From Candidatus Obscuribacterales bacterium (GTDB lineage Bacteria; Cyanobacteriota; Vampirovibrionia; Obscuribacterales; Obscuribacteraceae): a stretch of DNA of 64,000 bases. The position numbers and the translations under genes were made by a program. The notes under the pieces are model-generated. The model searched no databases. It was not told the origin of the DNA and saw only the letters and a program-made list of their open reading frames with translations. Positions 17,417-61,629 of this stretch are shown in pieces. Location: contig CBDDIJ010000002.1 in NCBI GenBank assembly GCA_965228855.1, positions 1,760,001 to 1,824,000 of the forward strand, read 5' to 3'. Each line of letters opens with the position of its first letter. Position 1 is the stretch's first letter.

Positions 17417-18352
17417 ATGCCTATAGCGAATGCAGGAACACTTATCGAGAATGTTGTTTTAATCGAGTCGCTTCGAGTTCTGTGCGATGAGGCCGTCAGT
17501 GACTCGTCCTCAATCGAATTTATAAATAGTTTTACAATGGCTCCTCGGAGCCCGTGGACTGAACGATTGTATGCTGGTCCATTGAAGCTGGCTCGTCGTC
17601 AGATGATCGAAGCAAACTTTGATTCCACAGATGTGTCTGGTGAATTTTGTCAAGTGTATGCGCGGAGCTGTCTTGCTTTGTCCTATGAGGGACCAAGTGG
17701 TGCTCTCTTAGCAGCGATTTTATTGAGTCTGAAAAAAAAGCGGGCCCGCTTTTGGCTTAACGATAGCGGATTTTATCAATCATCCGCGAACACCGGAAAT
17801 CACAATATTGACTCAATCGCTGCTGAAGTATTGCCAAACGACCTTCAACCGCGGCTGGACTTGGTGTGTTCGGCGACTCCTTATCCGACAAGCCTCGTTG
17901 AGTTAAAACTTGAGCTTTCAAAATGGAGACAAAGTTCCAATGGTCGGCAGTTTAGAATAGGCTACTTGGACCCCAACAGATATTGTGCCGGTGGTGCCCG
18001 ACATACGGCTGCGACCTCTTCAGCAGACCACTGTGAGTGGCTGGAGATGCTAAATGTCGATTTACCGTCAGTAGTTATGTCCGTGCATTTTTCAGCAAAT
18101 TGCAATCAGCCGCTGTTAAGAAAGGAACTTCAGTATCTATACAAAGACGCCTCGGAAAGAGGCTACGTGTCAAACACGTTTTCAAACAGCTATTTAACTA
18201 CGACAATCTCGATTAACTCAAATGACTCGAAGCTGAGCTCACTGGAAATCATGAACCGAGCTTGCTCGAATATTCTCAGCGCCTGGGACCGTTGGCGAAC
18301 CGTTAGCGGACAAGGAAAAATGGCTTTGACCTCTAGGCGATACGATACTTAG
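17417..18352 (+). CDS. Hypothetical protein, possibly a divergent RlmJ-like SAM-dependent methyltransferase
   Basis: 311-aa ORF with RBS. Motif order NAGT..., FINSF, YEGPS, YLDPNRY loosely parallels RlmJ. Confidence 0.5.
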   Translation: MPIANAGTLIENVVLIESLRVLCDEAVSDSSSIEFINSFTMAPRSPWTERLYAGPLKLARRQMIEANFDSTDVSGEFCQVYARSCLALSYEGPSGALLAAILLSLKKKRARFWLNDSGFYQSSANTGNHNIDSIAAEVLPNDLQPRLDLVCSATPYPTSLVELKLELSKWRQSSNGRQFRIGYLDPNRYCAGGARHTAATSSADHCEWLEMLNVDLPSVVMSVHFSANCNQPLLRKELQYLYKDASERGYVSNTFSNSYLTTTISINSNDSKLSSLEIMNRACSNILSAWDRWRTVSGQGKMALTSRRYDT

Positions 18353-20253: not shown

Positions 20254-21273
20254 GTGGAGAAACACATGGGACCGAACAAACAATTCTATTGCACACTGCA
20301 AGGTGTGTCTATCGACGGCGCGTGTCTCGGCGGGTCACCGTTCGGGCAACCAAAATATTTTCGCCGTGATTCAACCTTCGTGCTTATTTTGGCTGTGATG
20401 GCGTTATCGGTTTTCGTGAATGACATAGTCAATTCACCCGCGATGGCCGGTTTTGGTAGAAACGTCCCCGTCGCTTTGGATGTTCAAAACCCTCCGGGCG
20501 ACAACCTCTATTTTACTGTGAAACCGTATATGGTGGCAGTTCGGCAGCGCATTCAGCAGGCTTGGCGACCGAATGTTTTGAGTCCATCTTATCGAACCAA
20601 AATTCAGTTTCAAATAAATCACGAAGGACAGATATTTGCTCCGCAACTCGTTTCATCTTCCGGAAACGAAAAATTCGATCAAAGAGCGATGAGTGCCGTT
20701 CTCGCATGTTCGCCGTTTCAACCTATTCCGATAGAGACGCTGATAATTACAGCAGCATTTGATAATCGCTATCTAACACCGGCCGAGCTTGATCAAAATG
20801 TTCAGCGTTACCGTTTCTTTCGGCAGCAACAGTTGGTGAGGGAGCAGCTACAGCCAACCTACTATCAATCGAACTTAGCGCAGCAAAACAACAGGTACGT
20901 GGAGCAAAATTATGGCGCGCAAATTCCGATATCTTCGAATCGCCAGCCACCGCAAGCTGAGCTGATGGATCCAGCTACCGATGGAGAGCTCAGGGGCGCT
21001 CCTCAGAATAAAGTTGATTCTGTTCCTGACGGTGGTGTGTATCAACCCGGTCGTGGCACCTCAGACGAAGCAAATAAATTCGCTTATTCAGAGCCGAAGA
21101 CAAAATCTGAGCTAGTAGCTCTCTCTCCAGATGAGCTAGAAAATTACAAAACCTGGTTCAACAACGAATGGTCGAAAGAGCCCCCGGAAAGACGCTTTTA
21201 TTTTTTGACTGGCTTGAAGTATTCGTCGACACCAGTGAAGCGAGTTGTCGTGAAAGGAAGAAAGCCAAAGTGA
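20254..21273 (+). CDS. TonB C-terminal domain-containing secreted protein
   Basis: YMVAVRQRIQQAW...FQINHEGQI...SSGNEKFDQRAMSAV...PFQPIP. Confidence 0.8.
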   Translation: MEKHMGPNKQFYCTLQGVSIDGACLGGSPFGQPKYFRRDSTFVLILAVMALSVFVNDIVNSPAMAGFGRNVPVALDVQNPPGDNLYFTVKPYMVAVRQRIQQAWRPNVLSPSYRTKIQFQINHEGQIFAPQLVSSSGNEKFDQRAMSAVLACSPFQPIPIETLIITAAFDNRYLTPAELDQNVQRYRFFRQQQLVREQLQPTYYQSNLAQQNNRYVEQNYGAQIPISSNRQPPQAELMDPATDGELRGAPQNKVDSVPDGGVYQPGRGTSDEANKFAYSEPKTKSELVALSPDELENYKTWFNNEWSKEPPERRFYFLTGLKYSSTPVKRVVVKGRKPK

Positions 21274-22097
21274 AGTCGACTAATGCCTCGCAGAAATTTT
21301 TAAATGTCTTTATTGTAAGTTCGATCTATTCAATGTGCTGTGCCCCTGCACTGTCACAAATGATGCTTACGGGAGGAATCGAGCATGCTGAAAAACTCAC
21401 TCCTGCTGCGAATGAGTTCGCTCCCGGTAAACCGCTCGCGGACCCGAAGCAAGTTGTGAATAAAACAGCAGGTGAGTGGTACACCATTCCCAATTGGTTG
21501 ACGGGGACTTGGAGCACGATTCAGCAAGTCAAAATCAAGTCCTTCAATGAGGAGACCGGAAATTCCGACGAGAAACCTGTAGTAGAACGTGGTCGAGAGA
21601 AAGAAACTTTCGGCTTTCAGCTGGACAAACAACATAACTATTGGACCAGCGGAAAAAGCGTTGAGCCGATTAAATCCAAGATCGAAAAGTCGATCGTTGA
21701 TGATGACGGCAAAACAAAAATCGTCACGAAGATTGAGTACAAGTTTCGAAGAAATGAGATTGTCTCATGCGAGGGAAACAAGGTTGTTTTGAAAACGACC
21801 GATGTCGTAGTGTCTACGAACCCGGACACCAAGAGAATTGAGGACACGAATCAAGTTGAATCAATTCGGACGTTCGTTCTGATGGACGACAAACTGTTGG
21901 CGGTTCGATCAGATGTCCAGCACTATGATCGCTTGGGCTTCCCGAAGGAGCGCAGCGTTCTCGCGGAGTTTCGAGCGAAGGATGCTGACTTCAAAGTCGT
22001 AAACGAAGTTGATGGCGTTAGTTTGTTTGCGTCATTCAAAGATTTTCTTCAAAAGCATGGCCAGTTAAACCTTGCTCCGGAGAAAGTTAACCAATGA
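21270..22097 (+). CDS. Secreted hypothetical protein
   Basis: GTG at 21270 overlaps the upstream TGA; signal peptide; LTGGIEH and WYTIPNWLTGTW motifs. Confidence 0.7.
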   Translation: MKSTNASQKFLNVFIVSSIYSMCCAPALSQMMLTGGIEHAEKLTPAANEFAPGKPLADPKQVVNKTAGEWYTIPNWLTGTWSTIQQVKIKSFNEETGNSDEKPVVERGREKETFGFQLDKQHNYWTSGKSVEPIKSKIEKSIVDDDGKTKIVTKIEYKFRRNEIVSCEGNKVVLKTTDVVVSTNPDTKRIEDTNQVESIRTFVLMDDKLLAVRSDVQHYDRLGFPKERSVLAEFRAKDADFKVVNEVDGVSLFASFKDFLQKHGQLNLAPEKVNQ

Positions 22098-23086
22098 ATG
22101 TTTTCAAAGTAACTCTAAGTCAAGCAGTGACGCTTGCGGCGTTAACTCTGTTCGTTTTTGGAGGAAGCGCATTTGCGAAGATTGATTCGATTGCCGAAGC
22201 GTATGCCAGCCAGGCAAGTAGAAGTTTGGGGCGCGGAGAAGTCTGGAATGCAATTAGACTTTATCAACAAGCTCTCGAACAGGAAATGAAGGACGACAAC
22301 GACGAGCTCTATATCGCGAAACTTCACAACGATTTGGGTGAATGCTACCGTCGGCTCGCCGATGATAAATATCAAAGGCAGATGTCCGGATTGAGTCCTG
22401 ATGACTGCTTAGCCAATGCCGAAAATTATTTGAAACAAGCGCTTGAGATAAAGGAAGCGACTTCCCGCGATAGAACTGATTTTTTATATATCGCTCTAAG
22501 TTTGGAGAATCTGGCGCTGGTATATTCCGCCCGAAACAATTTGTCCGAGGCAGAGGCGCTTTTGCGGAAAGCGCTGTACATCCGGGAAACCAAAGAGGGG
22601 CCGGATAGTCAAAATAGCGCGAGCACGCATTTGTATCTTGGCGACATTTTGACCAAAAATTCTTATTTCCACGAAGCTGAAAAGAATTACTCCAAAGCGA
22701 TTGCGATATACAGAAAGAAGGAAGCGGCCGATGCGCCGATTGTAGGTGTTTGCAATCAACGGCTGGCAGTGATGTTTTACCAATGGAACAAACTTGCTCG
22801 TGCTGGAGAACAATACGATTTAGCGCTTAACTCATTTAAAAAACATTTGCCATCAACGAGTAGAAATTTAGAGAAATTGAAGGCGGAGTTACCAAACATC
22901 GGGATCGAATCATACGGGCAAGCTCTTCGGGAGCTCAAGCAGAATTCGGATAAGAAGCCGGTGGTTCCTAGGGATGTGCAGATCTCGCTGATGAAGAACA
23001 TTCGAGCAGCTGCTCGCAGAACGGATAAAGCTGAGGACGTGAAGTACTTTGATAAAAAGCTCAGAGAATTGGGAGTTCAAAGCTGA
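22094..23086 (+). CDS. Secreted TPR protein
   Basis: Signal peptide and kinesin-light-chain-like TPRs (SLENLALVY...AEALLRKAL). ATGA overlap with the upstream gene. Confidence 0.85.
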   Translation: MNVFKVTLSQAVTLAALTLFVFGGSAFAKIDSIAEAYASQASRSLGRGEVWNAIRLYQQALEQEMKDDNDELYIAKLHNDLGECYRRLADDKYQRQMSGLSPDDCLANAENYLKQALEIKEATSRDRTDFLYIALSLENLALVYSARNNLSEAEALLRKALYIRETKEGPDSQNSASTHLYLGDILTKNSYFHEAEKNYSKAIAIYRKKEAADAPIVGVCNQRLAVMFYQWNKLARAGEQYDLALNSFKKHLPSTSRNLEKLKAELPNIGIESYGQALRELKQNSDKKPVVPRDVQISLMKNIRAAARRTDKAEDVKYFDKKLRELGVQS

Positions 23087-24027
23087 TGAATGAGCGCGTC
23101 AAAATCTTATTGCTTGTTGGAATGTTGGCAGTTTTTCTTATGGTGCTGTTCCCTCCATGGCAAGGCGCGTCCTACTCGATGATATTTTCGCCACCATCGC
23201 CGAGCAGTGAAATCGATTTCAATCGGCTTGGAATTCAGTTTGTACTGGTTGGTATCGCATGTGGTGCGCTTTGGCTCGCTTTGCCATCTGCGGATAACGG
23301 CTTGAGCGAACCTGATTCGACCGATTCGTCGAAGTCCAAGTTTGGAAAACACAGAGTCTTGATAGTTTCGACGGTCATTATGCTGTCAATCATTCTGCCG
23401 ATCGCATGGGGCTTAGTTCAGGACTATCAAAAACGTGTCGCTGCGGAGAGAGCTGCTAAGGAGGCTCAGCGACGATTCGAACTAGCAGCGCAGCTCGAGA
23501 GGCAGAGGCTAAAACTTTTAGCAGAAGAGGGCTATCGAAGGGACGAAGAAAACCGCCGCATAGCTCAGGCGAAAGTGGAATTTCTAGCCGAGCAGCAAAG
23601 GTTGCGCGAGGAACAAGCACAGGCTGAGGCTCAGGAACGTGAGGCTCAAATGCAGCAGCAAGTAAGAGCTCGCAGAGCCCAACTTGCGAAACTAGCCACG
23701 CCAAAAACGTGGAAAGTTGGTGGGCGGCAGATTGCACGAGTAAAACCGATCTTGCACACCTATTGGAAGGACGGACAACTTTACTATTGTCTGGAATTGA
23801 AGGGTGCGGCTGATGCGCTGGAATATGCGATGAGCACAAATCCTTCTGTGACTGTTTCACTTCAGCAAGCGGGCGGAGTGAGTCAATTTTCCTTCGCCTT
23901 TCCTCTGCATGCGATGGGACAAAAGAGATCGAAATCTGGTGCGATGGTTGGACTAATTAGTGCGCCAGCAAACGCCGTTCTCGCAGAAGAAATTTACAAC
24001 GAAATTCTTCAAGCGAAAATGGACTAA
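23086..24027 (+). CDS. Membrane-anchored coiled-coil hypothetical protein
   Basis: LFPPW N-terminal motif, 3 TM helices, E/R/Q-rich coiled coil; translationally coupled to the upstream gene. Confidence 0.72.
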   Translation: MNERVKILLLVGMLAVFLMVLFPPWQGASYSMIFSPPSPSSEIDFNRLGIQFVLVGIACGALWLALPSADNGLSEPDSTDSSKSKFGKHRVLIVSTVIMLSIILPIAWGLVQDYQKRVAAERAAKEAQRRFELAAQLERQRLKLLAEEGYRRDEENRRIAQAKVEFLAEQQRLREEQAQAEAQEREAQMQQQVRARRAQLAKLATPKTWKVGGRQIARVKPILHTYWKDGQLYYCLELKGAADALEYAMSTNPSVTVSLQQAGGVSQFSFAFPLHAMGQKRSKSGAMVGLISAPANAVLAEEIYNEILQAKMD

Positions 24028-24052: not shown

Positions 24053-25876
24053 ATGTCAGACGAAAAATCATTTATCGATATATGGAGCTCCAGAAAGCTT
24101 TTGCTGACTTGGAAGTCCATTCGCCGCGATTTAAAATCGGTTGAGGCTCGCGACACTTTGGATTTCTTAGAGTTTGATTTTTTCTTGGATGAAAATATAA
24201 AGGTGTTGCGGAAGTCAATTCTCGCTGGGACCTATCAACCGACCGTACCGAATTTGTTTGAATTAGCAAAGGGCAGAGGGTCGTTTCGCACTATTTCGCT
24301 GCTCATACCGGAGGACATTCTGGTTTTTAAGCACTTAGTTGACCACGTCTACTCAAAAGCTAGTAGAGCTGAGCCGCGAGGAGTGTTCTTTTCGCGGTCA
24401 CAGAAGCCAGTTCCGGTCGGTCCAACGCTGAACTCGTTGAATTCCGTTGAAGCTGTCGCGTATGAGTCCGGCTGGAACTTGTGGGTCCGGTACCAGCAGT
24501 ACCGGACGCGGACCATGATAAATGCCATCCGGCCGATTCTTGTGGTTACAGACATCACAAATTTTTTTGAGTCCATTCAGCATGACATGCTTTTGGAATA
24601 TCTTTCTCCGTTTTCTCTGCCACGAAAGGCTGTTGGATTATTGGGTCGGTTTCTCGAAATCTTTAAACCTGCATGTGGATTTTCCCCAACTCCGAGAGTC
24701 GGCCTGGTTGTTGACCAGCATTACTGCTCCAGGGCGTTGGGTCACATCTTCCTGTTTGAGCATGATCTTCGGCTTTCCAAAGCCGTTGGGCTCGATCATT
24801 ATGTCCGTTGGATGGATGACCAGAATGTTGCCGTCGGATCCTTAACAGAAGCCCGTCGACTAGGGAGGACGCTAACCGAATCATTATCCCAACAACGCCT
24901 CGTATTGAACGCCGCCAAGACAAAATTTTTAAATCCGTCGGAGATAGTTCAACACTTTCATCTCGATGCCAATGACGAACTCGACAAGCTCGATGCTTCG
25001 CTCAAAAGTGGCCAACCAAGCAAAGCCGATAGGTTGCAGCTGTACCTATCCTGGCGGCAAGCTAGGAAATTGAGAGGAATTGGCAATTGGGACAAGGTCG
25101 TAAAAAGATTTTACGGCTATGCTGGAAGATTGCGTATGAGCTTTCTGAGACCTATGGCATTCAATCATTTGGTTCAATTTCCATTGCAAGCAGACCGCAT
25201 CTTTGACTACTTCATAGCGCTTCGAGATTTCGACGGTTTACTGGAATTGATGAGTAACTATGTGTCGACCGGAGAAAGTATCTACGAAAGTGTTGAGACC
25301 GCTTTCTTCGAGATCTTGCTTTGCAATAATATTCCCAATAGTTATCGCTCCATCTACAGGAATTTTGCTCTCCAGTGGCTTCAAAATCCGACCATGGGCT
25401 CTGGTCGACCACACTCGAGGGGCTCAGCGGCGTTATGTCTTTTCTGGCTCGGCGACAAAAGGTCCGCCACCTCAATTCGGAAAGTCCTCTTGCAAAATAT
25501 AAATCTTTATCCAGGCACGACTCTTCGCAGCTTGCTAGCTTCCTACATAGCGTTGGACCCCTCCAAGATCAACGACGGTGTAGCTATCGCGGCAAGTCAT
25601 GGTGGTTCCGAACTCGCCCTACTTGCCAAGTTTGTTCAGCGTTTGCAGAATGACTTGAATGTTTCCTGCTCACTTCCAGCTGTTGATCAACAGTTTCGAT
25701 ATATGAATCAGTCCAAGCTTTACGAAGCTCGAACGTGGATTCGCTTAGAAATTTTGGCATTGGCTGGTTCACCAGACGTGCTCAAATGGCTGCGTCTTCA
25801 AAAGAAAAGGATTTTGAAAAAAACATTAGGCGATTGTGAGATGCGAGTGTTTAAACGGTGGCAAGGGCGCGTGTGA
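24053..25876 (+). CDS. Reverse transcriptase, UG/Abi (defence-associated) type, with long alpha-helical C-terminus
   Basis: RT motifs K..GSFRTI, VVTDITNFFESIQH, GLVVDQHYCSRALGHIFL, YVRWMDD (WMDD at 24809-24820) and LVLNAAKT, then about 300 aa of helical tail. No maturase/HNH domain. Start ATG 24053 gives 607 aa. Confidence 0.9.
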   Translation: MSDEKSFIDIWSSRKLLLTWKSIRRDLKSVEARDTLDFLEFDFFLDENIKVLRKSILAGTYQPTVPNLFELAKGRGSFRTISLLIPEDILVFKHLVDHVYSKASRAEPRGVFFSRSQKPVPVGPTLNSLNSVEAVAYESGWNLWVRYQQYRTRTMINAIRPILVVTDITNFFESIQHDMLLEYLSPFSLPRKAVGLLGRFLEIFKPACGFSPTPRVGLVVDQHYCSRALGHIFLFEHDLRLSKAVGLDHYVRWMDDQNVAVGSLTEARRLGRTLTESLSQQRLVLNAAKTKFLNPSEIVQHFHLDANDELDKLDASLKSGQPSKADRLQLYLSWRQARKLRGIGNWDKVVKRFYGYAGRLRMSFLRPMAFNHLVQFPLQADRIFDYFIALRDFDGLLELMSNYVSTGESIYESVETAFFEILLCNNIPNSYRSIYRNFALQWLQNPTMGSGRPHSRGSAALCLFWLGDKRSATSIRKVLLQNINLYPGTTLRSLLASYIALDPSKINDGVAIAASHGGSELALLAKFVQRLQNDLNVSCSLPAVDQQFRYMNQSKLYEARTWIRLEILALAGSPDVLKWLRLQKKRILKKTLGDCEMRVFKRWQGRV

Positions 25877-25914
25877 GCAATGTTATGCGTTTGCGCTGTG
25901 CTAGTCGAGGGGCT

Positions 25915-26240
25915 CTGGAAGATGACTTTGGTTACACCTATTTGGCAAAGAATTCCAGCACTGACTGTCTCCGCAATGCTAACATGCGAAATGGTACTAA
26001 ATAGGGTGGCATTTCAAAATAGGCGTAAACGGCAGGATACTTCGATTCTGGTGTCGCGATGCGGGGGGCAGAACCAGTCGACCAAAATTCTTTTGATTGA
26101 CAGTGCTCAATCAGCTATTCGATGATAAGAGGCTCGTTTGCTTTTTGCCAAAAATGTGTCTGCGTTAAAATCGCCAACCGCATTGGATAATGGTAATCAG
26201 AGTTTTTTACCCTTGCATAATGGTGCAAGCCCGTGTTTTT
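25915..26240 (+). ncRNA. Candidate structured ncRNA downstream of the RT (strand assumed)
   Basis: Stems found by eye: ctggaa/ttccag 25915-25958; gaaatg/catttc 25988-26015; tcga-ctggt/accag-tcga 26042-26081; tgattga/tcaatca 26094-26113; long-range tttggcaaa 25941-49 / tttgccaaa 26144-52; cttgca/tgcaag 26212-26229. Confidence 0.45.
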
Positions 26241-26320
26241 GAACGCTGAGCCAGCACCTTCTTCGCGCAAATATTGCTGCGACGCCCAATCCTCGTGCTT
26301 TTAAAGTGAGTGTCTCGTCA

Positions 26321-28494: not shown

Positions 28495-30285
28495 TTGTCA
28501 CAAGAAATACCGCAACAACGGGATGGCAAAACTGATACCGATCGATTGCGCGGATTCTGCGAGGAAAATTTCCTTGCTCGTTTACTCTGTGGATACTTTG
28601 GAACACGCACTCGGCGGAGACCGGTTTATGTTGCTACTTTGGAACAGACCATTGCAAGGGCTTGTAAGGAAAAAAATAAGCGACCGCCACGTCACTCCGA
28701 CGTCGTCAAGGCATTAAAAGGAATCGAAAAGATTTCGGCAGAGTCTGGAATTTTTGGAGAGTACGTCGAAGGGCGCCACGGTCACAAGTCGCGATTCGAG
28801 TTTACGGACGAGCTAATTGCGTTTGGTAATTCTCTCGAAAAGGAAGCGATCGACTTTGACTCTGAGCCAGCTGGGATTGTATCGGATGAAGAGGAGTTTG
28901 AACTGAGCGACATCGTCGAGGATGTTGAGGTGGAGCAAAAGTACGCAGGTCAGCAAACGTATCCAGAGCTTGAGACGACGGAAAATGAGCTAGAAGAAAA
29001 CGTTGCTGATGATCGACCCGTAACCAGTCAGCCGAACGATTGGAATGTAGAAACTCTCAGAGGAAAGTTTGATCGCGGATACATCGAATTGCAACCGGAA
29101 TATCAACGTGAATTCGTCTGGGAGTTAAAGCCTGAATTACCTTCCCGTCTAATTGAATCGATTTTACTGGAAATACCAATTCCTCCGATTTACTTCGGAA
29201 AAATTGCGAATGGAAAGCTTGAATTGATCGACGGCCAACAACGTCTGACTACCCTCATCCGTTTCGTGAAAAATGAATTCCAGCTTTCGAAATTGGAACG
29301 TTTAAGCAGTCTTAACGGGAAGATGTTTAGGGACTTGGAAGAGTCCACCCAATCGAAAATTTTGGATACATCAATACGAAGCGTTGTCATCGATACCGGT
29401 ACGAATGACAGTCTTCGCTACGAGATTTTTGAACGATTCAATCGAGGATCGGTTGCGCTGAATCAACAAGAACTTCGAAACTGTGTATACAGAGGAAAAT
29501 TCAATGACTTGCTGCGAAAATTGGTAGAAGATTCGATTTGGAGAAAAGTGAAGGGCACAGACAAGCCAGATCCGCGGTTTATCGAAAGAGAAATGATTCT
29601 CAGACTTTTTGCACTGCATAGCCGGCTCGATTATTTTGCGGGAAATTTGAAACAGTTTTTGAACGACTATATGAAACTGCATGCGCCGAAGGATGAGGAA
29701 ACACTTCTACTTCAAGAAAACATGTTCCACCAAATGATGCAGAATGTCTTTGCAGTTTTTGGCCAAAACTCTGCACGCATATATGTGACAGGAGAGGAAG
29801 GTGGTAAGACGGTCTCTGGAAGCTGGAATCCAAAGTTCTCAATTTCGGCGCTGGACATTCAAGCGTCAGCTCTTTTTGGTCAGCCGCGAGAACGTGTTCA
29901 AGCTGCAGCTGATCAGATTCGCGAAGCGTACATTCTCTTTCTTCTGACAAATGAAAATATCCGTGAAGCTATTTCCGGACACACCGCAAGCACCAAAGCA
30001 ACGAAGTTAAGATGGACAGCCTTTAAAGGACAAGTTGCTGAGATACTTAACGGCACGAAGGTTGAACCCCGCTTCTTCAGCTTCGAATTTAGAAAGGAAC
30101 TCTATGCCAAGGATTCGATGTGTCAGCTGTGTCGAAACCCGATTTACGATTTTGATGAGGCGGCAGTCGATCATATCGTGCCTTACGCGAAATCGGGAAG
30201 GACAATTAGAGAAAACGCGCAGATAGCTCACAGGTGGTGTAATTCGAAAAAATGCAAGAATGATTCAATAAATTTTGAAGCGTAA
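28495..30285 (+). CDS. DUF262 (GmrS-like) + HNH endonuclease with an extra N-terminal domain
   Basis: PEYQREFVW, LIESILLEIPIPPIY, IDGQQRLTT, IFERFNRG; C-terminal CQLC...VDHIVPY..SG....NAQIAHRWCNSKK. Confidence 0.9.
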   Translation: MSQEIPQQRDGKTDTDRLRGFCEENFLARLLCGYFGTRTRRRPVYVATLEQTIARACKEKNKRPPRHSDVVKALKGIEKISAESGIFGEYVEGRHGHKSRFEFTDELIAFGNSLEKEAIDFDSEPAGIVSDEEEFELSDIVEDVEVEQKYAGQQTYPELETTENELEENVADDRPVTSQPNDWNVETLRGKFDRGYIELQPEYQREFVWELKPELPSRLIESILLEIPIPPIYFGKIANGKLELIDGQQRLTTLIRFVKNEFQLSKLERLSSLNGKMFRDLEESTQSKILDTSIRSVVIDTGTNDSLRYEIFERFNRGSVALNQQELRNCVYRGKFNDLLRKLVEDSIWRKVKGTDKPDPRFIEREMILRLFALHSRLDYFAGNLKQFLNDYMKLHAPKDEETLLLQENMFHQMMQNVFAVFGQNSARIYVTGEEGGKTVSGSWNPKFSISALDIQASALFGQPRERVQAAADQIREAYILFLLTNENIREAISGHTASTKATKLRWTAFKGQVAEILNGTKVEPRFFSFEFRKELYAKDSMCQLCRNPIYDFDEAAVDHIVPYAKSGRTIRENAQIAHRWCNSKKCKNDSINFEA

Positions 30286-30334
30286 CGACAAGTAATTGCT
30301 CCAGTCTCAAGATTTCCGATGGTTCATCAAAGAT

Positions 30335-31621
30335 ATGAAAACTAGATCTGAGTTCAGTTTAGCAACTAAACGAAGTTTGGCTAACGCTGCTAACAATCAG
30401 TGCAGTTATCTGAATTGTCCAATGAGAACGAGTGGTCCAGATCTGGGTTCCGGAGGTTCGCTTCGTCTGGGAAAAGCCGCGCATATTTACAGCGCTTCGC
30501 CTTGTGGTCCCCGTGGTCAAGGCGGCTTGAGTCGCGAAGAGTTAAAGCATCATCAAAATGGAATTTGGCTTTGTGCTGATCACGCAACGTTGATAGACGA
30601 GAACAATGGAGTTGGTCATCCGGCAGCAAAGCTATTTAGTTACAAACGATTGCACGAGCACCGTGTGCAGAAGGAAATATTAGGCACTTGCAAAGCAATC
30701 GGCTGGATTGATGAAATCGAGCTCGTTCACACGCCTTTATTCGAGCCAGGTTCGAAAATTCGGCTTGGGAAGTTAAGTTTGGTCTTCGGTAATAATAGTT
30801 TAGGAAAGTCTACTTTAGCGAAATTTCTGGGCAGCTACTTTGACGTCGAAATGCTCGGGCAGTGGAAAAAAGATCAGAATGCTCCCCTGGAATTTAGGAT
30901 GAACTATTACTGCCCCGATCCTGTCACTGTAGGCTTTTCGAAACAAAAAGGCTTGGCTGGGCGATACGAAATCGGAGGCGAATTTTTCTCAAAAAACCCA
31001 GTTCACTGCAGAATAATTTTGGTACCGGAGTTTTCTGAGGATTTTAATGGGTCTGCGATAGCACACATCTCGCACATACTTGATTTACCGGAATGGGAAA
31101 TTGTAAGTCTGATTGAATCAGCAAATTCGTTTCCCTTCTCGAATTTGAAGAATTACCAGGTCTCAAAACCTACAAAGCACGGGAGCTTCGATGAACTTTC
31201 GGTTCATGCCTATGAAGAGAACTTCTCCGTCGTCTTCCGCAATCTCTCGACGACGGAGAAGCAATTTGCAATTATGGATCTTGCAACAGCACTTGCAAGA
31301 AAAACTTCTATTTATCAACCAACTCTCCTTTTTCTTGACTGTAACTTAATAAGCAACGAGGAGGTGTTCAGAAGATTCGAATCGCTTTTGCTCGCGCGAG
31401 AAAACCAATTTCAAACGATTTTGACAGCTCGCTTAAATGGCATCGATCTAGCTGATGTCCAATGGCGAGGCTGGGAGGTTGTTCGCTTGTATCGAGAATC
31501 GTCTGGGTTGACGAAGATATCACAAGACCCCAAGATGAAAGTAGCACCTGAAATACTGAAATTGACTCCCCGCAGGCCGGGTAATTGGAGTGAAAGGAAA
31601 TTGAGTATCGACGACGTTTAG
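30335..31621 (+). CDS. HNH-like nuclease domain fused to a P-loop/ABC-type ATPase
   Basis: CSYLNC...AAHIYSASPCGPRG...NGIWLCADHATLID; Walker A GNNSLGKST; LSTTEKQ signature-like motif; LLFLD Walker B. Confidence 0.75.
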   Translation: MKTRSEFSLATKRSLANAANNQCSYLNCPMRTSGPDLGSGGSLRLGKAAHIYSASPCGPRGQGGLSREELKHHQNGIWLCADHATLIDENNGVGHPAAKLFSYKRLHEHRVQKEILGTCKAIGWIDEIELVHTPLFEPGSKIRLGKLSLVFGNNSLGKSTLAKFLGSYFDVEMLGQWKKDQNAPLEFRMNYYCPDPVTVGFSKQKGLAGRYEIGGEFFSKNPVHCRIILVPEFSEDFNGSAIAHISHILDLPEWEIVSLIESANSFPFSNLKNYQVSKPTKHGSFDELSVHAYEENFSVVFRNLSTTEKQFAIMDLATALARKTSIYQPTLLFLDCNLISNEEVFRRFESLLLARENQFQTILTARLNGIDLADVQWRGWEVVRLYRESSGLTKISQDPKMKVAPEILKLTPRRPGNWSERKLSIDDV

Positions 31622-31694
31622 AAATTGCGGATTGTGAAAGCTCACATCTGCCCCTTCTTCTACGACGCACAGAGCTAGTTACGTGAGGCGCGCG

Positions 31695-34238
31695 ATGCGA
31701 TACAGGCTGGATGAATTAGGATGGCACCAATTCGAAAATCTATGCCAATCCCTTCTTAAAGCGAAATTTGGTGACGCGATTGAGTCTTGGGGAGGAAGCC
31801 GAGATATAGGCAGAGACGCCTATTGTTCTAGGCCAATTGAGCTGGTCAAGGGAGTGTCTTCCGCTGCTCCGCTCGTGTTTCAAGTGAAGTTTGTTAACGC
31901 TGCGAATTCCGCCGGTGCGAATTGGAATAGCTTATTGAATTCAGCTGTCCGAAAAGAATGTGCCCTGCTCAAAGCGAAAAGGGAACAGCGCATGGTGGAA
32001 GAGATTAAGGAATACATTCTCATTTCGAATGGCGTCTACACGCCAGAACTTCGAGCTGAAGTCTGCGGCATCATTAAACAGTCGTTGCCTCATGCGAATG
32101 TCACCGCATTCGGTGGCAACGACGTTTGTGATTGGTTAGATGACCGTCCAAATATTCGTTGGTCGTTTCCCCAGCTCGTCAGCCTCCGAGATATCGAACT
32201 GCTTCTCGCAGATCGGGTGCGATTTTCAGTGCATAAGTTGGTCTTGGAACGAAGTTCCATTCAACTGGAGTTGGCTCGAAGTCAAGCCGCGGCTTTTGTG
32301 CCCACGAAAACATATTTTAAGGCACTTAATGTGTTGAGGAGTCATAAATTTTTAGTTCTCAGCGGGCCGCCAGAGGTTGGCAAGACTACGATTGCGCGAA
32401 TGATAGGGCTGAATGCGCACTATCTCGGTTGGCAATGCTATGAGGTTCACAGCCCAGACGAAATGCTCACGATTATTGAGAGAAATTCCCGGAGTGGAGC
32501 CGGTAGCGAGGAGAAGATTCCGCCTCAACTATTCATTGCTGATGATGCATTTGGTACCACTGAATACGACGAGGATTTCGCGCGAGATTGGACAAAGGAT
32601 CTGGACAAGGTTATTGGAGTCCTTGATTCGAGGCACTTAATGATCTGGACATCACGCTCCGCGCCGTTAGCCCACGCACTGGAGTATCTTCGGTTGCAAG
32701 GACCCGCAGAGCGCTTCCCGGATCCTGCGAAAGTCGTAGTCGATTCTAGCGACCTCGTGCTGGAAGAAAAAGCGCTCATTCTTTATAGGCACGCCAAATA
32801 CGCAAACTTGGAAGACCAAGCCAGACAGATTCTGCGGACTCATGCCTATACGATTGTTAGCGACGAACATTTTACTCCCGAGCGGATCAGGCGATTTGTT
32901 CACACTGACCTTGGAACCATCACTGGAACTGTTGGTATTGAAGAGCATAAGGTTGAATCTGCGATTGCTCGCCAACTGAGAGATCCAACAAAATCGATGC
33001 GTCAGTCTTTCAGAAGTCTCAGTGAGTACCGACAAAGGTTCTTGGTTTCTCTTCTAGACTGTGCTTCTCATGCGGTTGTGCCACAAGATGCTTACGACGC
33101 GTTTTTGCGAATCTTCGGAGATGTCGTAGACAAGCGCCCGCCTCTAATTGCAGAAGACCTTGATGAACAATTCATCAGATTGGTTCGAGGACCGAAACAT
33201 GGCTCCCGATCTGAACTTGTCTATGAATGGGTGCATCCAAGTTGGCGAGACTTGTTAATCGATCACTTGGTGGATCATCGATTGACTCGGCAGCGTTTTT
33301 TAGGACGCTGTTCCGTTTCTGGTATCGCACTTTCCCTTTCTTCGGCGGGTGGTGCCGCTGGTCGTCGGAGTTTTCCGCTGGTTATTGAAGATTCTGATTG
33401 GAATTGTCTGACGTCGAATGTTTCCGCTTTAGTCCCCAATTTAAAGGCTAAAGATCTTGAAAGGCTTCTGTTTATTGTCAGTGCGGCGTTTAAGCATTCT
33501 TCTCAAGGCGATGAGCAGGAGAGACGACTATTCGAGCTCGCATCAGCTTGTATTCATGCGTCGTCTCTCGCGTGGGCACAGAGGCGAGCCTATGCGACAA
33601 CAAATGCGCTTCGGTCATATTATTCGATTTGCAGATCGACGAAGATCACGTTGGATCCTGGATTAAGCGGAATCTGGACGGAAGTATTTTTTGACTTGGT
33701 TGAACTGGTCATTGAGGGTACTGATTTCGAAGTTCTAACCGATGAGCTGGGTTCGATCGCTGAATATATTCGACTGACACAGGATGAGAGTCCTCAGTTC
33801 TTCGATCGGATCGTAGCAGGTGGTAAAGCTCAAAGGGAAATCCTTGATCTGGCGTTGGACGTCTTTGAGGACGAGGCGGAATCTGAGTATGAGTCTTGGG
33901 GCCGCGACAACGATACCAGAGAGTCATGCAAAGTTCGCTTCAAGAAATCTGTAAAGGATCTTGAGACTATCGCACGACTAGCTCCTGAATTTTCTGAAAA
34001 GATTTCCAAATCCAAGAAAAGATGTGTTGCTTACATCCAGGACATCGAGGAGCAAGAAGCTGAAGAAGAGGAGGAAGAACGGAAAAACACGGACGAACAG
34101 TTTTTTGATGACGACGATAGCGAAGATGTTTTTTTTCAGCGTGGATCAAATAGGATCACAGCGGCTATACAGAAGCCGGTCGTTCAGGAACAGCTTCCTC
34201 CCCAGCGAATCGTCTCGGATTTGTTCGAGGATTTGTAG
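31695..34238 (+). CDS. Restriction-endonuclease-fold domain + STAND-type (nSTAND3-like) NTPase
   Basis: FENLCQSLL...GGSRDIGRDAY...FQVKF (PD-(D/E)xK type); Walker A GPPEVGKTT; LFIADDAFG; WTSR; helical and acidic C-terminus. Confidence 0.8.
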   Translation: MRYRLDELGWHQFENLCQSLLKAKFGDAIESWGGSRDIGRDAYCSRPIELVKGVSSAAPLVFQVKFVNAANSAGANWNSLLNSAVRKECALLKAKREQRMVEEIKEYILISNGVYTPELRAEVCGIIKQSLPHANVTAFGGNDVCDWLDDRPNIRWSFPQLVSLRDIELLLADRVRFSVHKLVLERSSIQLELARSQAAAFVPTKTYFKALNVLRSHKFLVLSGPPEVGKTTIARMIGLNAHYLGWQCYEVHSPDEMLTIIERNSRSGAGSEEKIPPQLFIADDAFGTTEYDEDFARDWTKDLDKVIGVLDSRHLMIWTSRSAPLAHALEYLRLQGPAERFPDPAKVVVDSSDLVLEEKALILYRHAKYANLEDQARQILRTHAYTIVSDEHFTPERIRRFVHTDLGTITGTVGIEEHKVESAIARQLRDPTKSMRQSFRSLSEYRQRFLVSLLDCASHAVVPQDAYDAFLRIFGDVVDKRPPLIAEDLDEQFIRLVRGPKHGSRSELVYEWVHPSWRDLLIDHLVDHRLTRQRFLGRCSVSGIALSLSSAGGAAGRRSFPLVIEDSDWNCLTSNVSALVPNLKAKDLERLLFIVSAAFKHSSQGDEQERRLFELASACIHASSLAWAQRRAYATTNALRSYYSICRSTKITLDPGLSGIWTEVFFDLVELVIEGTDFEVLTDELGSIAEYIRLTQDESPQFFDRIVAGGKAQREILDLALDVFEDEAESEYESWGRDNDTRESCKVRFKKSVKDLETIARLAPEFSEKISKSKKRCVAYIQDIEEQEAEEEEEERKNTDEQFFDDDDSEDVFFQRGSNRITAAIQKPVVQEQLPPQRIVSDLFEDL

Positions 34239-34346: not shown

Positions 34347-34709
34347 ATGAGTTTGAGTTCGAGAAAAGAATTGTTGGAGCGCATTCAGAGCGTATATGCA
34401 CAGAGTTCGTATAAGGAGAAGAACCAGGTGCTGACTGCGTTTGTGCAGGCGACTGGCTACCGAAGAAAATATGCAATCACTCTGCTCAATCAGACTAAGG
34501 AACTGAAGCAGCAGAAGCGCGCTGACGTCGCGACTCGAAAGAAAATTTACGGCGAGGAAGTTCTCCAGGCGATTTTAACGGTTTGGCGTGCGGCCAACGA
34601 AACCTGTCCTAAACGGCTCATCCCATTTTTGCCGAAGTCTGTCGAGTCGCTGGAAAAGCACGGACATCTATCACTGACCGCAATTTCTCTTGACGCCAAT
34701 CATGTTTAG
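34347..34709 (+). pseudogene. Truncated transposase (N-terminal part of an rve/integrase-core IS family)
   Basis: SRKELL...Y...EK..VL.AFV.ATGYRRKYAI.LL...YG...VW.A...CPKRL.PFLP is the typical N-terminus. The catalytic DDE domain is absent. Confidence 0.75.
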
Positions 34710-34838
34710 CTTGGCGATAAAACTGTTCAATACAACAGTGCTTAGAAACGCTGGTCCTATCACAATACGAGGGTGAGTCCGGAACTTTAATGCGTAGAGT
34801 TCGGTATAATTTAGTTGCTGCCTGTGAGGTCACGCTCG

Positions 34839-36212
34839 ATGTCAGACAAACCGCTCAAAAGTCGCGGCGAAAGAGTGGATAAAGAATCGAAGCTAGAACA
34901 GCCGGCAGATGTCGCGCAGGCGAGAACTTCTGACGGTGTGACGTTACAGTCTCTGCGTGATAAAAACGAGAACGTTTGGCGAAGCGAAGGCGGGCTATTT
35001 GCCATCGTTGATAGCGAGAAAACTATTGCGAAGCAAAAGGCTAGTCCGTCAGATGTTCAATCGGTGAGTCCATCAACCGCAAATGAATGGAAAGCATTTT
35101 CAACTCTCAGTATTGAACAACGAGAAAAAATCATCCAGGCGTTCGCGGACGGATCGAAGGTCGGACAGAGCGAATATACAGAACAGATTCAAGCGGTTTC
35201 TGAATCTATACCTAAAGGTTTCTACAACGTCGGAAAGTCGGTTTTAGACAGTTTCTTCGCGGTTGGACAATTCGTCTACGACGTTTATTTTAACAAGCCT
35301 GCAGCCGAAAAAACTGGCGCACAGGTCGGGGAGTCAATCGGCAAAGCGATTATTGGCGGTCTAAAGCTCGGTGAGTTTTTAAGAGAGTACGCGGTCAGCG
35401 TTCAACAAACTGGTGATTACAACAAACCAGTTTCTGATTTTGTCACCGTTGTTGATGGAATGAACCGATGCTGGAATCGCATGCCGCTGGCGACGCGCAC
35501 GGAGAGAGTTAGTGAACTCCTTGCCGGTTTATCTCTCGCTGGTGTTGGCGCCGAGCGACTCACAAAGTCTGGCAGCATTCTTCAATTTTTTGACGAGCTT
35601 ACGGATCTGTCGACGGTCGCGAAGACTGGCAAAGTTGATTCGGCGCAAAAGATCAAAAACTTCTTTTCGAAACTCGCTGATGAAAGTCGGCACGAAATTA
35701 AACATCCGATTCAGACTAATGAACTCTCTCCCGATGAGCTTCTGCTTGCGTTGGCTGGTAGCAAGGGCAAACCGCCGTGGAATGTTTTTAAGCTGCGCAA
35801 ATCTGCTGATGTTGTGCAACAGGTGCACGATCAATCCTGCGTTTCTGCGGTCGGGGAAATGCTCTCCGGTGGAAAAATTAAACAGTCGAGTCTGATTGAA
35901 AAATTGGGAACTGAGAAAGTGGATGCGCGTAGGCTTGCGCCCGAGCTTGGAGGCGAGTGGGAAGGTCATTACGTCGGCGTGCTTTCCGATGCGCAAGTTC
36001 GAGATATTTGCAAATTCGGACCGTTTGGTGCGACATTGAAGGCCTTTGGAGCTGATGCGCATATGGTTGTAGTTGATGGTTTGTCCAAACAGGGACGCTT
36101 GCTTATTCGCGATCCGGCTCACGGACACCGATATGAAATGACTGTTGACGATTTTTCGGAACTTTGCCAGGCCGTCGTAAGCCGAGCGAAACTAACAGGG
36201 AGAAAGGCATGA
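34839..36212 (+). CDS. Polymorphic-toxin-like protein with a C-terminal papain/C39-like cysteine peptidase
   Basis: QQVHDQSCVSAVGEML (Cys), HMVVVDG (His), IRDP (Asp); helical pre-toxin middle region. Confidence 0.7.
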   Translation: MSDKPLKSRGERVDKESKLEQPADVAQARTSDGVTLQSLRDKNENVWRSEGGLFAIVDSEKTIAKQKASPSDVQSVSPSTANEWKAFSTLSIEQREKIIQAFADGSKVGQSEYTEQIQAVSESIPKGFYNVGKSVLDSFFAVGQFVYDVYFNKPAAEKTGAQVGESIGKAIIGGLKLGEFLREYAVSVQQTGDYNKPVSDFVTVVDGMNRCWNRMPLATRTERVSELLAGLSLAGVGAERLTKSGSILQFFDELTDLSTVAKTGKVDSAQKIKNFFSKLADESRHEIKHPIQTNELSPDELLLALAGSKGKPPWNVFKLRKSADVVQQVHDQSCVSAVGEMLSGGKIKQSSLIEKLGTEKVDARRLAPELGGEWEGHYVGVLSDAQVRDICKFGPFGATLKAFGADAHMVVVDGLSKQGRLLIRDPAHGHRYEMTVDDFSELCQAVVSRAKLTGRKA

Positions 36213-36703
36213 AGCCAGTTGCTTTATTCGTATCCGGCGATGACGAGTACACGATGCAGTTCGAAGAAAACGGCGAACGCTCGTTCTGTGCGTTGAGTTT
36301 AAAAGACGAGTCGTTTCAGTTTGAGCAGAACTGCACTTCTACAGAGGCCGAGAAGGAATTGGTGTTGGCGTGCGTCGAAGCGTTTCACGAGTCGCGTCGC
36401 ACGCTTTTTGAAAACTCGGAACCGATGGTTTCGGTAGTTAGCGGCAATCCAGTAGTGAGTACCAAAAAGAGTTTGAGTCCGAAGCGGTTTGAGGTAGGAA
36501 AGGAACTTAGCGAGTTTCGTGCGGACATCGATTGTGAGGGGCGTCCAACAAGTTACGATTTTAAAGTGGTCGATAACGGCGTCTACATTGGTATCGATGG
36601 CGATGAGAATTTTTGGCGAGACATTGGGGGTGAGCTGAATACGGCGAAGCCGCTGTTCAAGGCACTTACCGCGTTCTATAAATTGCGATGTGGGCAGTTA
36701 TAG
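36209..36703 (+). CDS. Putative immunity protein
   Basis: ATGA overlap with the toxin stop; acidic; two internal repeats each ending A..F...R. Confidence 0.6.
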   Translation: MKPVALFVSGDDEYTMQFEENGERSFCALSLKDESFQFEQNCTSTEAEKELVLACVEAFHESRRTLFENSEPMVSVVSGNPVVSTKKSLSPKRFEVGKELSEFRADIDCEGRPTSYDFKVVDNGVYIGIDGDENFWRDIGGELNTAKPLFKALTAFYKLRCGQL

Positions 36704-54435: not shown

Positions 54436-55782
54436 ATGGCAGAAAGCGAAAAAACGGGCAAGAAGTTCACAGCGAAGGCAATTCGGGCATTTGAGTGCCC
54501 CGCCCATTTGAAGCAGCATTACTTTTTCGTGCTTCCCGACGTTCATCTTTACGTTTCCGTCGGGAGGGGCGGGAAAAAGGCGTTCTGTTTCCGTATATAT
54601 GAATCAAAAGAGCGCCGTTGGCGCACCCTGGATTTGAATTGTAAGTTCGAAGATAAACTCCCGGACGCGCTATTACGGGACGTCATGCTCGAAGCGCAAT
54701 CAAGAGCGGCTGAACTTACCGCACGTCTAAATCGCGGTGAAAACGTTTTTGATCAGACACGCAAAGAATCCCCGGTTAGCCTTCAGGAGCTGTTCGATCA
54801 TTATAAGGAGCACCACCTTGAGAAAAGAGGAAAGCGCGTTCTAGACAACGAGAATAACTTCAAACGTTGGTTCGCCAAGAAGAATCTGGCCAAGAAAAAA
54901 GCGAATGAGTTTTCCCACGAGGACGCAGCGCGACTTCACTCGTCAATGGAGGAAACGCCGGGTAGTGCAAACCGCGCTGTGCAGCTTGGTCGCGCGATGT
55001 ACAACTTTGGCATCAAAACTCATTTTATTTCGCGTACAGATAATCCTTTTGCCGGAGTCTCGTTGTACCGGGAGAACGAGCGAGACAGAGTGCTGTCAGA
55101 CGAAGAGGCGGCTAAACTTTTGAACGAGCTTGAAGCTATACCCGCGATTCATTCGAGAGAACGGACATTACGCGACTTCATTCTGCTCTCCCTTTTGACA
55201 GGCGCGCGTAAGTCAAATGTAATGACAATGCGCTGGGAGGAAGTCGATCTAAAGAACGCTACCTGGAGCATCCCAGCAGAGAAAACGAAAACTCTGCGCG
55301 CACAAATAATTCCGCTCGGTGAGACTGAGAACGAGGTGCTCACCGACCGTAAAAGGCTGCTCAAAAATTCTGCGGAGATTGAGCGCGATTGCCCCTGGGT
55401 CTTCCCGGGAAAAGGAGCCGCCGGACATATGGTTGATCCAGGCAACGCCTGGGAATCACTTCGCAAAAGGCTTGGGATGAGCGACCTCTGGATTCACGAT
55501 TTGCGCAGAAGCTTGGCATCGTCAATGGCCAATACAGGCGCAGACGTTTCGGTTGTCAGGGCTGCCCTCAACCACACCGACACACGAACCACGCTAAAGG
55601 CATACATTCGTACGAGCCAGCAAGTACAACTGGAAGCAAGGCAGAGGGCGCAAGGGGCTTGGTTTGAGGCTGCGAAGCGCCAAAAAGAGGCTCCCGAGGA
55701 TTCAGCCTCGGAAGAATCTAGAAACAAGCCTGCACAACGCAAGCCGAAGTCAAAACGCAACCCCGTCAAGCAAAAGTCCTAA
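54436..55782 (+). CDS. int: Tyrosine recombinase/integrase (P4-like with arm-binding N-terminal domain)
   Basis: TGARKSNV (R), KTK, HDLRR (HxxR), LNH, AY (catalytic Tyr). Confidence 0.93.
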   Translation: MAESEKTGKKFTAKAIRAFECPAHLKQHYFFVLPDVHLYVSVGRGGKKAFCFRIYESKERRWRTLDLNCKFEDKLPDALLRDVMLEAQSRAAELTARLNRGENVFDQTRKESPVSLQELFDHYKEHHLEKRGKRVLDNENNFKRWFAKKNLAKKKANEFSHEDAARLHSSMEETPGSANRAVQLGRAMYNFGIKTHFISRTDNPFAGVSLYRENERDRVLSDEEAAKLLNELEAIPAIHSRERTLRDFILLSLLTGARKSNVMTMRWEEVDLKNATWSIPAEKTKTLRAQIIPLGETENEVLTDRKRLLKNSAEIERDCPWVFPGKGAAGHMVDPGNAWESLRKRLGMSDLWIHDLRRSLASSMANTGADVSVVRAALNHTDTRTTLKAYIRTSQQVQLEARQRAQGAWFEAAKRQKEAPEDSASEESRNKPAQRKPKSKRNPVKQKS

Positions 55783-55919
55783 GCCTTAGGTCTCAGATAA
55801 GCTAAAAGCTACTTACCAAACCCGCTAGGGCTCATCAGATGAGACTTCCGGGGATAACCTACCTCTGCCACAACAGGAGCGACCCGTTCCTATATAATAA
55901 GTTTGCCCCGCATGAAAAA

Positions 55920-55976
55920 TGGTTTGGGCTAAACCAAAAATAGTTAGTTGCAAACTAAATTGCTTTGGTGTATAAC
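55920..55976 (+). promoter_or_regulatory. Sigma70-like promoter with overlapping palindromic operator(s)
   Basis: TTGCAA(55948)-N17-TATAAC(55971). Palindrome TTAGTT-gca-AACTAA 55944-58 lies over the -35 box; a second inverted repeat TGGTTT-gggct-AAACCA is at 55920-36. Confidence 0.6.
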
Positions 55977-56007
55977 TAAAGCATCGGGTTATGCAAGGAA
56001 CGCCATC

Positions 56008-56277
56008 GTGAGCAAATCAACAAAGCACATGCAAGGACGGATGTCTCAAAGAGCTATCAAATCAGAGCTGGTTCAACTGACCCAACAGTACGGGCATCAG
56101 GACGGGGACAAAGTTGTCCTCACGAAGAAGTCCCTAATCATGCTCCAAAGCGAGCTGGACGCTCTGAAAAAGACCGTTCAAGAAGCATTGAAAAAGGGCG
56201 GAGTTGTAGTGGTGGAGTCTGGTGACACCATGATTACAACTTACCGGCTCGACAGCTACAAGCGGATGGCCAGCTAA
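56008..56277 (+). CDS. DUF4258-like small protein
   Basis: GTG start with AAGGA RBS; TKHMQGRMSQRAI...YG...VVVV.SGDTMITTY. Confidence 0.7.
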   Translation: MSKSTKHMQGRMSQRAIKSELVQLTQQYGHQDGDKVVLTKKSLIMLQSELDALKKTVQEALKKGGVVVVESGDTMITTYRLDSYKRMAS

Positions 56278-58151: not shown

Positions 58152-58217
58152 CGCGGACCACCGTCACGGGTATACCTTATCTGAGGCCACTTTTGTATCG
58201 CCCGCAGGAGGCTCAAA

Positions 58218-61200: not shown

Positions 61201-61619
61201 CAACCAATTTGACCTTGCAGAAAATTCGCCGGAAGCTGGCTGTAACCGAGGCGGACCTGGTCGCCCTCCAGTCCCTCATTCTTGAGCGCGTTCCAGGCTT
61301 GAAGCAAGATGAGCTTGAAAAGCTGTTTCCAACGGAAGCAAGTTCGCTCGACAGGTTGATTCGTTCCATTGTTGGCATGGATGAACTAACTGTGCGAGTC
61401 GCTTTCGAACGTTTTAGAACTGCGCATTCGAACTTGAAGGCGAACCAGCTTCAATTCTTGTCGCTTGTGGAGCAGGAAATCATAAAGAGCGGAGGACTTG
61501 AAGTTGCTCGCCTATACGAGCAGCCTTTTACAAGCATCCACACCTTGGGTCTGGAAGGTGTATTCAAACAACAGGAAGCTGACGAACTGGTCGCACTCAT
61601 TGATGAATTAGTTGGATAG
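58218..61619 (+). CDS. hsdR: Type I restriction enzyme R subunit (EcoEI/EcoAI-like, DUF4145 N-terminus)
   Basis: VDY...IEAKR, MATGTGKT, DESHR, GLTATP, MLDTGIDVP, QMIGRGTRL, LYEQPFT. Confidence 0.95.
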   Translation: MTTDQTTSTTTSNFAFLESKWPDLASLAKFAEEYAHTDPASSQVKVRIFAERIVDILYYELGLRKPIDANFRDLLDTADFKRAMPRQIIDFLHYVRKEGNKGAHEAKGAASTQACLRLLENVHKLSVWFYATVTKQKVSLPPYQAIQKPKSAADLQAELKAREKRIKELEELQEKQRSEHPKAPATEESLKKTLAQSTAEADTLGLTEAETRKQLIDSLLVDAGWTLLDKVSDYDPISGKPQCIREYPVKHQPTPSGDGSVDYVLMGADGKPIGVIEAKRTAHDPAKGKTKAEEYANGIEKMTGQRPFIYYTNGHEIHFWDDHPVVGYPPRRVWGFHDLEKLQYLLFQRKNRQKLSTIKLKTSIAERDYQLECIRRVYECFEDRNHRKALIVMATGTGKTRTAMSLIDGLMRANWVKRVLFLVDRVELQNQAEEEGFKEHLPDLSIVKVSSATKKDKDSRVYLATYNAMMNAYSQFNIGFFDLIVADESHRTIYKYYREIFQYFDAFQIGLTATPVDYVTRNTYRFFECEDRDPTFYFSLTEAIEHKPPYLVNYEVDNKTSQFLQSGIRYDDLTEEQRAQLEEQDEDAQSFDYSRDEVDSLIMNKETNRMIIRNLMENGIRNADGTRPGKTIIFARKHDHGKLLEEEFNDMYPQYRGKVAKLIDYMDDRKEELIKGFKGKKKEFKDLDIAISVDMLDTGIDVPEVVNLVFAKPVYSKIKFWQMIGRGTRLRKELFGPGKDKTHFLIFDPWRNFEFFGVNPEGIVRDSESRSVPERLFSVRLELLQAIEQSNASSTQVSPFTTPLVDLIRQDVRALPRDSVSVRERWQDMERVGKDKFWNERNDDFYTVLENNVRPLMRWRDIQGEADAMAFDIKVTRLQLCLIEGDTDGFAKAQDKVLEDIERLRTNLNQVKQELDLIEAVQKASWWRDVTVEKLEEMRLRLRGLMKYRSVNRVRSKAIDIIDYAVPGTASPRVAEQGLEAYRVRVVQVLHDLTATNLTLQKIRRKLAVTEADLVALQSLILERVPGLKQDELEKLFPTEASSLDRLIRSIVGMDELTVRVAFERFRTAHSNLKANQLQFLSLVEQEIIKSGGLEVARLYEQPFTSIHTLGLEGVFKQQEADELVALIDELVG

Positions 61620-61629
61620 AGGAGGAAAA

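Follow-up and report, generated by a model that had tools for sequence, protein, structure and literature searches.

Does a stand-alone bacterial reverse transcriptase (RT) copy a non-coding RNA (ncRNA) encoded directly behind it, or could it write DNA with no RNA partner at all? The question is raised by a gene at 24053..25876 (+) of a 64,000-nucleotide stretch of Candidatus Obscuribacterales bacterium DNA (assembly GCA_965228855.1, contig CBDDIJ010000002.1, positions 1,760,001 to 1,824,000), hereafter called the window. An earlier note, made from the sequence alone, had taken this RT and a "densely structured" region downstream for a defence system of RT plus ncRNA, and could not assign the enzyme to a named class. 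We find that it is assignable, by profile and most likely also by its place in a tree, to the UG13a type of the Class 1 UG/Abi RTs, and that the downstream DNA is most likely no more than plain intergenic sequence where two genes converge. The reading we favour, and regard as probable, is a stand-alone UG13a-type RT with an alpha-helical repeat (aRep) domain, which would prime on one of its own tyrosines, make single-stranded DNA (ssDNA) without a template and act in abortive phage defence.

The RT gene and its group

The frame at 24053-25876 (+) contains no internal stop, begins 25 nt behind the preceding stop codon and encodes 607 amino acids. Its RT domain, fingers and palm, occupies residues 1-301 (24053..24955, +) and carries all three catalytic aspartates (D167, D255 and D256); the gene is intact, and its sequence also stands unbroken in public contigs that may be the source of this DNA. 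The earlier note had described the length, the WMDD, the GLVVDQ and the spacing on either side correctly; the two motifs lie at residues 253-256 and 217-222. Its statement that maturase, Cas1 and nitrilase domains are missing also agrees with Pfam, which finds RVT_1 as the sole domain, and its identification of a UG/Abi RT is borne out by PADLOC profile, tree and fold match.

To which group does the enzyme belong? Among PADLOC models, RT_UG13a ranks first (235.5 bits, E 3.7e-70, residues 5-541), followed by UG21 at 110.8 bits, and it is also the top model for 21 of 21 homologs scanned; the match is judged by rank and score, as no curated cut-off is shown for this model. None of the NCBIfam models for DRTs, retrons or group II introns comes near its cut-off. 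Group II introns, retrons and RT-Cas1 were considered and rejected: TIGR04416 gives 43.6 bits (cut-off 300) and the St85 retron model 16.4 (cut-off 235), Rfam has no match in the window, the downstream gap included, and Pfam reports RVT_1 only.

For an RT-domain tree, the 178 aligned sequences were thinned to one in three, with the six closest included as well, and seven rows were added; FastTree was run on the resulting 71 rows and 293 columns. The RT falls in a branch of 40 rows (support 0.975), whose sister branch of 19 rows (0.998) contains the plasmid protein L149; the two are joined with support 0.991. Over 28 visible residues, L149 agrees with WP_012976231.1, a published row of UG13a, and this is the one published reference verified in a tree that carries FastTree support only and has no UG19-21 rows. 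Three published UG13a rows resemble a more basal group of the tree by motif, which would nest the branch of our RT inside UG13a. Scores against the UG13a model run from 235 to 305 bits in this branch and from 573 to 716 in four members of the sister branch, L149 among them; in addition, the AKxxGxFR fingers of our branch occur in none of 65 of the 74 rows published for UG13a. Because of these low scores and the missing motif, the branch is most likely a UG13a sub-branch that was unsampled in 2022, its nesting resting on motif likeness.

According to Mestre et al. 2022, Class 1 UG/Abi enzymes combine an RT with alpha-helical repeats, ncRNAs are described for UG2, UG8, UG27 and UG28, and the defence status of UG13a is listed as "inconclusive" (PMC9226505). 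In the literature searched, as far as its accessible text goes, we found no experimentally tested member of UG13a, a group described in 2022.

Predicted structure and conserved residues

The predicted model of the RT has an overall predicted local distance difference test score (pLDDT) of 91.4, falling to 59-74 at residues 111-150, the loop that holds Tyr137. Residues 304-607 (24962..25873, +) are modelled as a helical, HEAT-like solenoid and align with the C-terminal lobes of DRT6, DRT4 and AbiK and with HEAT solenoids, in keeping with the helical C-terminus suspected before. Of the listed RT structures, those of DRT6, DRT4/UG15, AbiK, AbiA and Abi-P2 alone align over both domains (367-458 residues, extending to residues 528-578), whereas alignments with DRT2, DRT9 and group II RTs end at residues 298-381. 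The model thus predicts the fusion of RT and aRep that is a Class 1 trait.

Motifs were counted over 178 aligned full-length homologs. D167, D255, D256, D238 and K289 are invariant. WMDD (24809..24820, +) is found in 139 of the 178, with Trp at position 253 in 160. GLVVDQ (branch consensus GLPVDE) aligns to the GTPQG of group II RTs and is an altered motif 4 in place of GxPQG; behind it comes Arg227, almost invariant (174/178), the two together spanning 24701..24733 (+). Asp stands at position 221 in 38 of the 39 nearest homologs and 62 of the 72 next ones, while 50 of the 67 most distant homologs have Gln at 220. WMDD and a divergent motif 4 are therefore present as the earlier note had said, but they are no oddity of a single copy: judged from the alignment, WMDD is a trait of the family and the PVD form of motif 4 is specific to the branch.

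Could the enzyme carry its own primer? Tyr137 (24461..24463, +), in the palm-insertion loop, is a candidate priming residue; the position is Tyr in 148 homologs, Ser in 10, Phe in 4, a gap in 13 and another residue in 3, with direct swaps of DPY to DPS. Tyr386, the second candidate, is more variable than Tyr137 within the branch.

The downstream gap

The RT stop is followed by 444 nt (25877..26320) that end at the stop (26321) of a convergent TPR gene. Could this DNA give rise to an ncRNA from which an unusual cDNA is copied, as in DRT2, DRT3 or DRT9? It lies directly behind the RT, has no open reading frame (ORF) of at least 100 amino acids and contains a few short hairpins of 7-8 bp (e.g. 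26212-26229); its best two 100-nt windows reach z scores of -3.2 and -3.0 among 40 window-strand tests. Against dinucleotide shuffles, however, the whole gap folds at z -0.93 (+) and +0.55 (-), which is the level of the shuffles. When it was compared under a single protocol with 21 gaps of similar size from this contig, 18 of them reached a minimum z below its -2.34, and 19 a lower mean. The description "densely structured" does not survive this comparison.

Conservation was assessed in homologous loci. Two collection scans gave 125 loci, to which two family genomes were added; 97 near-full-length loci from these were reduced to 86 distinct ones, and the RT is intact in 79 of these and broken in 7. 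The flank test used 80 UG13a-type loci, six broken ones having been removed and a frameshifted copy (G088) retained, and was calibrated on 31 DRT2 loci; ORF calls were crude (at least 120 amino acids), identity is that of the best BLAST stretch, and kin pairs are not independent. No homologous locus has flank DNA in common with the RT locus. At 45-60% RT identity, matching flanks occur in 0 of 743 UG13a-type pairs on either side, compared with 6 of 32 pairs on the RNA side of DRT2; at 60-80% the figures are 0/133 downstream and 1/134 upstream, against 1/1. The closest relatives are 52-56% identical, and a fast-changing RNA could evade blastn at this distance, as the DRT2 detection rate illustrates. 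Downstream k-mers of the UG13a-type loci do not rise above shuffles either.

On the RNA side of DRT2, upstream, 29 of 31 gaps measure at least 250 nt and one is shorter than 100 nt, whereas UG13a-type loci have at least 250 nt in 24 of 75 and less than 100 nt in 33 of 75 downstream (22/75 and 35/75 upstream). Both flanks resemble the non-RNA side of DRT2 (10/29 and 13/29), and the constant non-coding flank that is a trait of DRT2, DRT9 and DRT10 is not seen at UG13a-type loci. In 11 of the 79 intact homologs a Pfam-confirmed gene lies 7-70 nt downstream; six of these genes are convergent with the RT, which makes the measured gap exact. At one locus (L014, 944-2785) an intact UG13a-type RT sits without any spacer within a type I restriction-modification (R-M) operon, between hsdS, which it overlaps by 4 nt, and hsdM, 10 nt further. 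Of the two closest relatives, that at 56% identity (L131, G222:C63) is followed after about 165 nt by a resolvase fragment, and behind that at 52% (L130, in G088) an ORF begins at the RT stop or 60 nt later. A downstream ncRNA partner is thus unsupported, because the gap is neither unusually structured nor conserved and many intact homologs leave too little space for an RNA.

Two further observations concern the sampled RTs. The G088 copy is interrupted by a frameshift where a run of T lacks one base (L130 7438-7445); phase variation, decay or an error of long-read sequencing may be the cause. Long DRT2-like RTs are encoded in six genomes (L154-L159), all from a single family of the same class, in frames of 482-577 amino acids, just below the Drt2 cut-off.

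Genomic neighbourhood

No partner gene recurs: the 483 neighbour ORFs of the 86 loci form 436 clusters, the largest of which, of R-M type, covers 5 loci. Nearest neighbours were scanned at 76 of the 86 loci (the rest being the RT locus itself, a near-duplicate or loci with no neighbour of at least 130 amino acids on the contig) and tallied without a background control. They belong to R-M families at 13 loci, always on the RT strand and upstream in 11, to other defence types at 12 (TIR, STAND/AAA, Schlafen, SIR2, HNH, Cap4, KAP, TRADD-TM, SMC/LmuB-like, PD-T7-3-like) and to neither at 51. Both closest relatives adjoin defence-type genes, PD-T7-3-like in G088 and an LmuB-like ATPase in G222. Together with the Class 1 group and fold match, this neighbourhood lends support to the probable defence role that had been proposed, by analogy with studied relatives. 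No second RT was found among the neighbours in the window or the scanned neighbours of the 76 loci; the RT has one match in its own genome.

The RT is patchily distributed, in 3 of 401 genomes of the class. Seven genomes of the same genus lack any real match to the region 23.0-27.9 kb, and 17.4-36.7 kb has 47% G+C compared with 53% for the contig. In G222, the RT relative and the SMC/LmuB-like ATPase travel between a resolvase fragment, an insertion sequence and what look like genes for two integrases and for a transposase with its ATPase; from this gene content, the G222 RT is probably mobile cargo.

Upstream of the RT, a four-gene block (20254..24027, +) encodes a TonB_C protein, a 309-residue protein of no known type, a TPR protein and a membrane protein with coiled coil. 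We treat it as context and not as a required partner. Three or four of its genes occur in five other genomes of the family, next to the RT only in G088; elsewhere the block is followed by other genes, partly of defence type (e.g. an NsnB/AriA-like ATPase). Its TPR gene is likewise patchy, being found by search in 4 of 103 family genomes and additionally in G088. The block (elsewhere at loci L130, L141, L142, L143 and L144) is possibly the marker of a variable island.

The other defence genes reported about 2.6 kb away are indeed there, as a cluster at 28495..34238 (+) recognised by Pfam and PADLOC, again context. The first (28495-30285, +) encodes a GmrSD_N protein with a C-terminal HNH and an extra N-terminal region (top PADLOC model NsnA, E 3.7e-76). 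The second (30296-31621, +) encodes a CBASS-effector-like HNH fused to an ATPase-like region in place of SAVED, PADLOC covering residues 15-146 only, and the third (31683-34238, +) a restriction-endonuclease-like N-terminus with an nSTAND3 NTPase and a helical tail (PADLOC PDC-S73, E 2e-22). A 120-residue frame behind the cluster (34347-34709), with no useful Pfam match, resembles a truncated transposase. At 34815-36703, a 465-residue protein carrying a papain-like domain at its C-terminus (weak Peptidase_C70 match) overlaps a 179-residue gene, a layout suggestive of a polymorphic toxin and its immunity protein. Farther off, 54436-63351 holds a phage integrase and then a type I R-M cluster with a methyltransferase-specificity fusion, HsdR and HsdM; the 311-residue protein at 17417-18352 has no Pfam, PADLOC or NCBIfam match.

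Proposed mechanism and alternatives

How might such an enzyme act? The reports on Class 1 enzymes studied so far describe DNA made without a nucleic-acid template, often tyrosine-primed (PMC13174585; 10.64898/2026.02.16.706125; PMC12783706). In DRT4 the priming residue is Tyr125, placed in a long loop between fingers and palm; phage ssDNA-binding proteins or an increase in deoxynucleoside triphosphates (dNTPs) trigger the enzyme, which is also able to cut RNA (10.64898/2026.10.27.754916). Because of its Class 1 placement, and by analogy with AbiK, DRT4, DRT6 and DRT3b, we propose protein priming and template-free synthesis for the RT. The enzyme would oligomerise, respond to elevated dNTPs or to an ssDNA-binding protein of the phage, prime on its own Tyr137, or else Tyr386, and make protein-attached ssDNA without an RNA template; host arrest would then stop phage spread by abortive infection. 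Two points weigh against this proposal: the RT core is group II-like, and the association with defence is incomplete.

A more far-reaching version, which we hold to be doubtful, is that the sub-branch is a new single-gene defence RT in which Trp253, the PVD with Asp221, and Arg227 replace the template and dictate a defined, as yet unseen DNA sequence, the primer being a Tyr or Ser of the palm loop. In canonical RTs the PQG motif lines the template, and Asp221 and Arg227 stand where room is left for it. This position, and the precedent of E22/R241 in DRT3b, are the reasons for considering amino-acid templating.

Could the RT instead be an accessory, a back-up guard of neighbouring restriction or other defence systems, or have a non-defence role such as repair, and be inert alone? 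The consistent strand and mostly upstream position of the R-M neighbours, and the locus inside a type I R-M operon, speak for this. Here, however, the RT stands behind the TonB/TPR/membrane block with no R-M gene adjoining, R-M types differ between loci and most loci have none, and we consider the idea unlikely. It is rather improbable, too, that the RT takes as its template an RNA provided in trans, whether of host or phage or encoded elsewhere: the model predicts no thumb or maturase, the solenoid following the palm, and PQG is replaced by PVD and then the near-invariant Arg. That the RT is carried by a mobile island and is itself inactive or in decay would fit the broken copies at 7 of 86 loci and the absence of the locus from the seven same-genus genomes; it is very unlikely in view of a full-length open frame in which the catalytic residues are all kept and the family-invariant ones mostly so. 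An ncRNA template in the gap, finally, we dismiss almost entirely, on the folding and flank results above and with no Class 2 RT adjoining.

We therefore return to template-free synthesis by a stand-alone UG13a-type RT as the probable reading. Since the exceptional idea of an RNA partner fails, the locus is of value as a good candidate from a group already catalogued. Several Class 1 UG/Abi RTs studied recently write DNA in different ways, yielding random ssDNA, poly-dT or protein-templated CA repeats. This RT and its roughly 80 intact relatives are single genes suited to such tests, with specific residues identified for mutation.

Comparison with known systems

With the ncRNA-templated Class 2 systems DRT2 and DRT9 the RT shares only the fold of its core, aligned to about residues 300-350; it differs in lacking a constant non-coding flank, in its fused aRep and in its Drt2 score of 15.4 bits (cut-off 390). 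DRT3b (UG8) is, like our RT, a Class 1 RT with aRep. It uses E22 and R241 to write CA repeats, and the conserved charged residues near the active site of our RT could gate nucleotides in a like manner; the DRT3 system, however, also comprises a Class 2 RT and an ncRNA encoded downstream, both of them absent from the RT locus. AbiK, AbiA and Abi-P2 are likewise thumbless RTs followed by alpha-repeats, but are 8-14% identical to it, each has its priming Tyr elsewhere, and no HEPN was detected in the RT.

DRT6 (UG12) and DRT4 (UG15), single-gene Class 1 systems, share the two-lobed fold of RT and helical domain over 418-436 residues. As in DRT4, the loop between fingers and palm is long; some 30 residues ahead of the first Asp, our RT has a conserved Tyr that may be compared with Tyr125. 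Identity is 13-14%, YxDD stands there for WMDD here, the Drt4 model gives 18 bits (cut-off 450), and only for DRT4 have a hexamer, an ssDNA product and RNase activity been demonstrated. From the core of UG13a the RT is set off by its lower profile score (235 bits, against 573-716 in four core members) and by PVD(E) in motif 4, where distant relatives have PQ. It nonetheless resembles UG13a in its best profile over residues 5-541, its length of about 600 residues, RT and aRep, W-x-DD, its place in the tree and its occurrence as a single gene without a fixed partner.
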